A stretch of DNA of 64,000 bases. Source: Escherichia coli (GTDB lineage: Bacteria; Pseudomonadota; Gammaproteobacteria; Enterobacterales; Enterobacteriaceae). Positions 53,700 through 53,776 of this stretch are shown here, piece after piece. Every line of letters begins with the position of its first letter. Within the stretch, counting starts at the first letter, position 1. Below the pieces are notes generated by a model. The model did not search any database. It was given only the letters and a program-made list of their open reading frames with translations, and was not told the origin of the DNA. Location: assembly GCF_017348835.2 (NCBI RefSeq), contig NZ_CP071375.1. One strand, written 5' to 3'. The translations under genes and the position numbers were made by a program.

Positions 53700-53776
53700 C
53701 GCGGGGTGGAGCAGCTTGGTAGCTCGTCGGGCTCATAACCCGAAGGTCGTCGGTTCAAATCCGGCCCCCGCAACCA
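53700..53776 (+). tRNA. metW: Initiator tRNA-fMet (anticodon CAU), D-loop variant copy (T at tRNA position 17)
   Basis: Identical to the flanking copies except GCAGCTTGG versus GCAGCCTGG (window position 53716). Confidence 0.95.

Follow-up and report, generated by a model that had tools for sequence, protein, structure and literature searches.

The question raised by this locus is whether one aberrant base in a set of otherwise identical tRNA genes is real and, if so, how it arose. In the 64,000-nucleotide stretch of Escherichia coli DNA analyzed here (the window), three initiator tRNA genes lie in tandem, and the middle one carries T where its two neighbors carry C. Chance statistics are not applicable to a single base difference, and what had to be decided was whether the base is real or not.

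The variant base and the tandem initiator tRNA cluster

Three tRNA-Met(CAT) genes, all on the plus strand, were detected in the window with ARAGORN (Table 1). A regular-expression comparison of the three 77-nt genes gave a single mismatch, T at 53716 versus C at 53606 and 53826, in agreement with an earlier note on this DNA, which had described the genes as identical except for this base. In the raw sequence, copies 1 and 3 have agcagCCTGGtagc in the D-loop region, and copy 2 has agcagCTTGGtagc. The base is position 17 of the tRNA both by linear count and by standard tRNA numbering; the two agree at this point, since 17a, the extra base of the D-loop, follows only after it. The same note had assigned it to the unpaired part of the D-loop, and this is where the Rfam model RF00005 places it, with a score of 61.4 bits for each of the copies (gathering score 29).

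The hallmarks of an initiator tRNA were found in the three copies: the CAT anticodon (ARAGORN), a C1 x A72 mismatch (a non-canonical pair in Rfam, with position 1 unpaired in RNAfold) and an anticodon stem in which GGG pairs with the CCC of UCGGGCUCAUAACCCGA (29:41, 30:40, 31:39). Both the C1 x A72 mismatch and the three anticodon-stem G-C pairs are described features of initiator tRNAs (PMC5389676). All three window genes are of the G46 form (tRNA-fMet1).

Over 24 kb the window is the same, with no difference, as E. coli PE164 (GCF_021390295.2), a strain from a pig in Nanjing, China. The annotation of PE164 and K-12, together with the alignment, identified the locus as the mltA-metZWV-amiC region of E. 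coli, with its three tandem G46 copies. It shares with metZ-metW-metV of K-12 the location, the gene order, the 77-nt genes, both 33-nt spacers, G46 and the terminator. A comparison with this reference run, which had been proposed in the earlier note, confirmed that K-12 has C17 and that the middle copy of the window differs from it by T17. The other differences are three upstream SNPs (including T for A at -9) and, downstream, one terminator-stem base and a 2-base indel in an A run. The T for A at 53581 lies nine bases before the first tRNA gene, in the leader or start-site region. At 53897, in the terminator stem, the window has G and K-12 has A, which replaces an A-U pair with G.U; the hairpin is still detected. 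A consensus promoter scan upstream of the operon detected no promoter, and it missed the tentative promoter given in Table 1 because the first hexamer of the latter matches at 3 of 6 positions only.

A single-base, apparently neutral difference between initiator copies exists likewise in K-12, where metY encodes tRNA-fMet2 (A46) in place of tRNA-fMet1 (G46). Unlike T17, that difference is found in the variable loop, at position 46, and outside a Dcm site.

Some variation in the organization of the region was also observed among E. coli genomes. Genomic islands (with type VI secretion genes or a phosphoglycerate-dehydrogenase-like gene) follow immediately after metV in AR_0017, MP1, A37 and PM7; the window has no island there, and amiC adjoins. 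TUM9757 has a four-copy tandem cluster in which the spacer-1 unit is duplicated (601-1007 of the retrieved locus). The number of tRNA-fMet matches per E. coli genome ranged from 1 to 8. Apart from the operon, Rfam gave in the window a match to the sRNA ES036 (CssrF) at 52120-52162 on the minus strand, with 46.5 bits (gathering score 37.6), located between mltA and tcdA.

Table 1. Coordinates of the initiator tRNA operon and its Dcm sites in the window.
Feature	Position	Strand	Basis or remark
Putative operon promoter, TTGCAT-16 nt-TATAGT, then GC-rich GCGC discriminator	53549..53576	+	By eye, tentative
Initiator tRNA gene 1 (metZ position), G46, C17	53590..53666	+	ARAGORN; Rfam 61.4 bits; same as K-12 metZ
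Intact Dcm site CCTGG, copy 1 (tRNA positions 16-19)	53605..53609	.	
Spacer 1, 33 nt	53667..53699	+	Same as K-12
Initiator tRNA gene 2 (metW position), U17	53700..53776	+	ARAGORN, Rfam, RNAfold; remainder same as copies 1 and 3
Decayed Dcm site CTTGG, copy 2	53715..53719	.	One of 32 CTWGG pentamers in the window (~180 expected)
Variant base, T for C, position 17, D-loop	53716	+	Inner C of the ancestral Dcm site
Spacer 2, 33 nt	53777..53809	+	K-12 type; several other spacer-2 alleles in other lineages
Initiator tRNA gene 3 (metV position), C17	53810..53886	+	ARAGORN; Rfam
Intact Dcm site CCTGG, copy 3	53825..53829	.	
Intrinsic terminator of the three-gene operon, then T run	53893..53912	+	

A Dcm site at position 17 and the recurrence of the change

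The Dcm context of position 17 was missed in the earlier note. Bases 16-19 of the wild-type D-loop are CCTGG, a Dcm site whose inner cytosine is C17; CCTGG is present in K-12 too, and the change in copy 2 is C to T at the inner C. Deamination of 5-methylcytosine yields thymine directly, and the hotspots produced in this way at Dcm sites (CCWGG) were first defined in lacI. Dcm methylates the inner cytosine of CCWGG (PMC3527292), and CCWGG is an acknowledged mutation hotspot of E. coli at the methylated base (PMC13250602; PMC3527292), which is opposed by Vsr very-short-patch repair, mainly in stationary phase (PMC3527292).

Both enzymes are encoded by the strain. In the annotation of PE164, dcm (3016770-3018188, 1,419 nt) and vsr (3016319-3016789, 471 nt) are adjacent and neither is flagged as a pseudogene, as neighboring genes are, so that both are intact per annotation. 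In the whole window, CCWGG was found 213 times versus 96 +/- 9 expected (2.2-fold over-represented) and CTWGG 32 times versus 180 +/- 14 expected (0.18x, 5.6-fold under-represented). Such a skew, with CCWGG in excess and CTWGG depleted, is classically ascribed to very-short-patch repair.

Other features of the PE164 chromosome (NZ_CP114128.1) were noted around these genes. The annotation marks frameshifts in dgcQ and yedA, and the porin gene next to dcm is split by the same transposase protein as that of the IS3-family element that interrupts gudP in the window (~26503-27716). Relative to the order in K-12, hya-app-tor-rut-put is found at 1.93-1.98 Mb and fli-dcm at 2.99-3.02 Mb; this rearrangement, at 1.93-3.03 Mb, would fit a large inversion around the terminus.

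The distribution of the change was then analyzed in 5,426 complete E. coli genomes, 5,425 of which had a match to the tRNA query. With queries of tRNA length, one mismatch brings the identity below 99%, and the top identity band therefore contains exact matches only. T17, at the Dcm-methylated inner C, was present in 124 of the 5,425 genomes (2.3%) and T16, at the adjacent, outer and unmethylated C, in 6 (two of them being the same strain). A single genome had A18 (G18A), which corresponds to a change of the methylated C on the other strand, where this C faces the invariant G18. These are counts of genomes and not of independent events, and one clade alone contributes 30. The sole G18A genome, 14EC017, has CCTAG in its first copy (451-527 of the retrieved locus) beside two intact copies; the substitution should break the conserved tertiary contact of G18. 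H10407 carries T16 in metY (451-527 of the retrieved locus).

T17 was found in each of the four initiator genes. Exact matches were obtained in 24 genomes for the first copy after the metZ leader (K-12 flank), in 22 for the middle copy after spacer 1, in 35 for the third copy after the K-12-type spacer 2 and in 16 for metY, at the separate argG-rimP locus; these counts leave out about 28 of the 124 carriers, which have variant spacers (e.g., AR_0017, A37 and PM7). Two genomes carry T17 at two loci. All the metY carriers are G46, and an exact-match query for T17 together with A46, the K-12-type metY background, found no genome among the 5,425. When the copy-1 query was made with the flank of the window (T at -9), 178 genomes matched (82 for a 64-nt query over at least 80% of its length), versus more than 5,300 with the K-12 flank; as a count, the former is uninformative because the flank with T at -9 is a rare haplotype.

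The seven middle-copy carriers sampled represent five or more distinct haplotypes of the upstream 1,450 bp. In PSS-04, which is one of these carriers, T17 is the sole difference from K-12 over these 1,450 bp and both spacers. Exactly one T17 copy was present in all 13 of the carrier clusters sampled. The picture that emerges from these comparisons is of a recurrent mutation, sometimes inherited by a clade and, in the clusters sampled, never homogenized across copies.

These data make it likely that T at 53716, an inherited allele of the middle tRNA-fMet1 gene, arose by spontaneous deamination of 5-methylcytosine at a Dcm site. As judged from the motif and the gene content, Dcm would methylate C17 on the coding strand; the 5-methylcytosine at position 17 would deaminate to T, and the resulting T:G mismatch would escape Vsr repair, be replicated and become fixed as T:A. 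The CTTGG left behind is no longer a Dcm or a Vsr site, so that Vsr can act there no more. The U17 tRNA, possibly reduced to dihydrouridine by DusB, would still work, because position 17 lies unpaired in the D-loop and tolerates changes of sequence, and the allele would therefore drift as a lineage marker, presumably at unchanged fitness, being passed on clonally. That this base belongs to a Dcm site would explain why it is the one that changes, recurrently, in all four initiator genes. The allele, found in 124 public genomes, thus joins a known operon to a known class of hotspot and needs no new biology; a literature search found no paper on this specific polymorphism. It resembles the known Dcm hotspots in the C-to-T change at the inner C, in a strain that encodes dcm and vsr, in the many independent recurrences and in the pentamer skew. 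It differs from them in being located in a multi-copy stable-RNA gene, where the outcome is filtered by tRNA function and each cell has wild-type paralogues alongside the T17 allele.

An ordinary random point mutation, which happened to fall in the Dcm motif and in which methylation had no causal role, is unlikely. The mechanism of one historical mutation is not observable and cannot be assigned with certainty, and neighboring variants do exist, as shown by the T16 and A18 genomes. However, the genomes with T17 exceed those with the adjacent C-to-T change about 20-fold, although this contrast could partly reflect a different tolerance of positions 16 and 17. Moreover, T17 has occurred independently in all four genes, with at least five haplotypes for one of them, and C to T is exactly what would be predicted for the methylated base where dcm is intact, as it is in PE164. 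The asymmetry between T17 and A18 fits selection on the invariant G18, possibly mixed with a strand bias, since the gene is highly expressed and its C17 belongs to the non-transcribed strand.

A further reading, to which little credence is given, places Vsr at the center. Repair of T:G in the heteroduplexes of gene conversion would set up a balance between mutation and biased conversion that holds T17 rare, and a mixed C17/U17(D17) pool would subtly alter initiation. Conversion biased by Vsr toward CCTGG would account both for the single T17 copy in 13 of 13 clusters and for the 5.6-fold depletion of CTWGG. If true, Vsr would be a directional homogenizer of a tRNA gene family; the effect of the mixed pool on initiation is a more speculative addition to this reading. 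The earlier note had listed an escape from gene conversion among its explanations. The part of that idea which stands is that T17 fits a new mutation, so far unhomogenized; it does not stand as the survivor of an ancestral difference.

Authenticity and inheritance of the allele

Exact matches to the 601-bp locus were found in only two of the 5,426 complete E. coli genomes, PE164 and F2_81 (GCF_900196535.2). F2_81, from a pig rectal swab in Australia, is an independent isolate with an independent assembly, and it also has T17 in the middle copy. Over 49,987 bp, 14 substitutions and no indels separate F2_81 from PE164, and none of the 14 is at CCWGG. This points to distinct strains of one lineage, with T17 older than their split, and to assemblies with no apparent sign of homopolymer or methylation-motif errors. 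The closest of the complete E. coli genomes after these two had 99.2% identity over 24 kb, and the set contained no C17 genome closely related to PE164. The IS3-family element in gudP is common to F2_81, and three of the 14 differences lie inside it.

A second case was provided by strain 222, in which the gene with T17 is the third copy. A 12-kb query from this strain retrieved 30 genomes at 0-1 differences, and the matches that came next already had about 16 mismatches. The 30 genomes, which come from many laboratories and sources, all carry the third-copy T17, as established from a list of carriers derived independently of the 12-kb query. Clonal transmission of T17 was thus observed both in the PE164/F2_81 pair and in the 30-genome clade.

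On the sequence comparisons, T17 in the window is very probably a real, inherited lineage marker, which upholds the strain marker suggested in the earlier note, and a sequencing error, suggested there as well, is very unlikely. Such an artefact would be a nanopore miscall of methylated C as T or a failure of polishing in near-identical repeats. Methylation-induced C-to-T and G-to-A errors are documented in nanopore data (PMC11610603), the site is a Dcm motif within a four-copy repeat, and many T17 carriers are singletons scattered over lineages, some of which, in other genomes, could be artefacts. Against this explanation, T is found in the same copy in two independent assemblies from different continents, which show neither indels nor CCWGG-associated differences over 50 kb, as well as without exception in the third copy of the 30-genome clade and, in all, in 124 public genomes. 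In addition, an artefact is blind to tRNA function and passes no filter of selection, so that G18A should appear too, yet it was seen in 1 genome versus 124 with T17. The accuracy at CCWGG is also about 99% with current basecalling models (PMC11610603).

It is equally improbable that the allele was imported by recombination from a lineage or species in which CTT is native, followed by gene conversion between copies. CTT is native in many Gammaproteobacteria, mixed CCT/CTT clusters exist, the haplotype of the PE164 locus is unusual, and the spacer-2 alleles show that the locus recombines. Nevertheless, the flanks and spacers around T17 are E. coli sequence, the same as in C17 strains, and no recombination tract with foreign SNPs was seen around 53716. 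PSS-04, identical to K-12 except for T17 over the upstream region and the spacers, argues in the same direction, as does the presence of one T17 copy only in each of the 13 clusters sampled.

Tolerance of U17 and its meaning

The earlier note had judged the change to be probably neutral, and the structural and comparative data support that judgment. The C17 and T17 alleles gave one cloverleaf in RNAfold, both at -30.3 kcal/mol. In both, four base pairs (GAGC/GCUC) form the D-stem and nine nucleotides the D-loop, and C17U keeps the size of the loop. In E. coli, tRNA-Pro is the only other tRNA in which a stable 4-bp stem with G/C at 12:23 and 13:22 closes a 9-nt D-loop (PMC4890201); for the EF-P function of tRNAPro the size of the loop matters, and the loop point substitutions tested were tolerated whereas changes of size were not (PMC4890201). 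Position 17 is not among the known identity elements of initiator tRNA (PMC5389676).

The allele was also searched for in other species, using the first 46 nt of the gene in its T17 form and one genome per species, and at least 120 loci were recovered. In 39 of 120 other-species loci among the matches listed, the 77-nt gene was identical to the middle copy of the window. U17 initiator tRNAs are native in Vibrio, Haemophilus, Providencia, Photorhabdus and others, some of them being identical to this copy. Among the matches listed, several species have CTT in all tandem copies, so that CTT is the sole allele in the clusters examined, whereas in E. coli only a minority of the genomes, 2.3%, carry it. 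Mixed CCT/CTT clusters were observed in Photorhabdus, Xenorhabdus ehlersii, Vibrio hannami and Enterobacter sp. Ag1. Heterogeneity of C/U17 between initiator copies thus seems to be common outside E. coli.

With the fold, the energy and the Rfam score unchanged, the 9-nt loop kept and the allele native in other species, the T17 change looks neutral, and the identical native genes are the strongest evidence for it. By analogy with the species in whose clusters the identical gene is the sole allele, the U17 tRNA would be expected to work in aminoacylation, in formylation and in the P-site. The D17 of E. coli tRNAs is the product of DusB (PMC5814906), for which U17 would be a candidate substrate. 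A preprint on tRNA modification in Vibrio cholerae contains no statement on D17 in its initiator tRNA.

Conversely, a functional variant favored in some niche, in which U17/D17 or the loss of the Dcm site alters the function or the expression of the initiator, is extremely unlikely: although DusB could modify U17 (PMC5814906) and the allele persists in a successful clinical clade of 30 genomes, its frequency is just 2.3%, never more than one T17 copy was present per cluster (13 sampled), the carriers listed follow no pattern of host or source (pig, human, bird, water), and the fold and the known identity elements are unaffected.

The case of T17 leaves the knowledge of the initiator tRNA and of Dcm unchanged, and its main use is that of a worked example. 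Where two sequences differ by C versus T at the inner C of CCWGG, above all within repeated genes, the difference is homoplasic; in annotation and in outbreak or SNP typing it should neither be used as a phylogenetic marker without context nor be dismissed as an error. E. coli tolerates an initiator tRNA whose gene has the same sequence as the one native to Vibrio and Haemophilus species. Finally, one Dcm site presents here two hotspot bases, one at a tolerant loop base, changed in 124 genomes, and the other opposite the invariant G18, changed in 1, and this pair provides a natural contrast of mutation supply versus selection.
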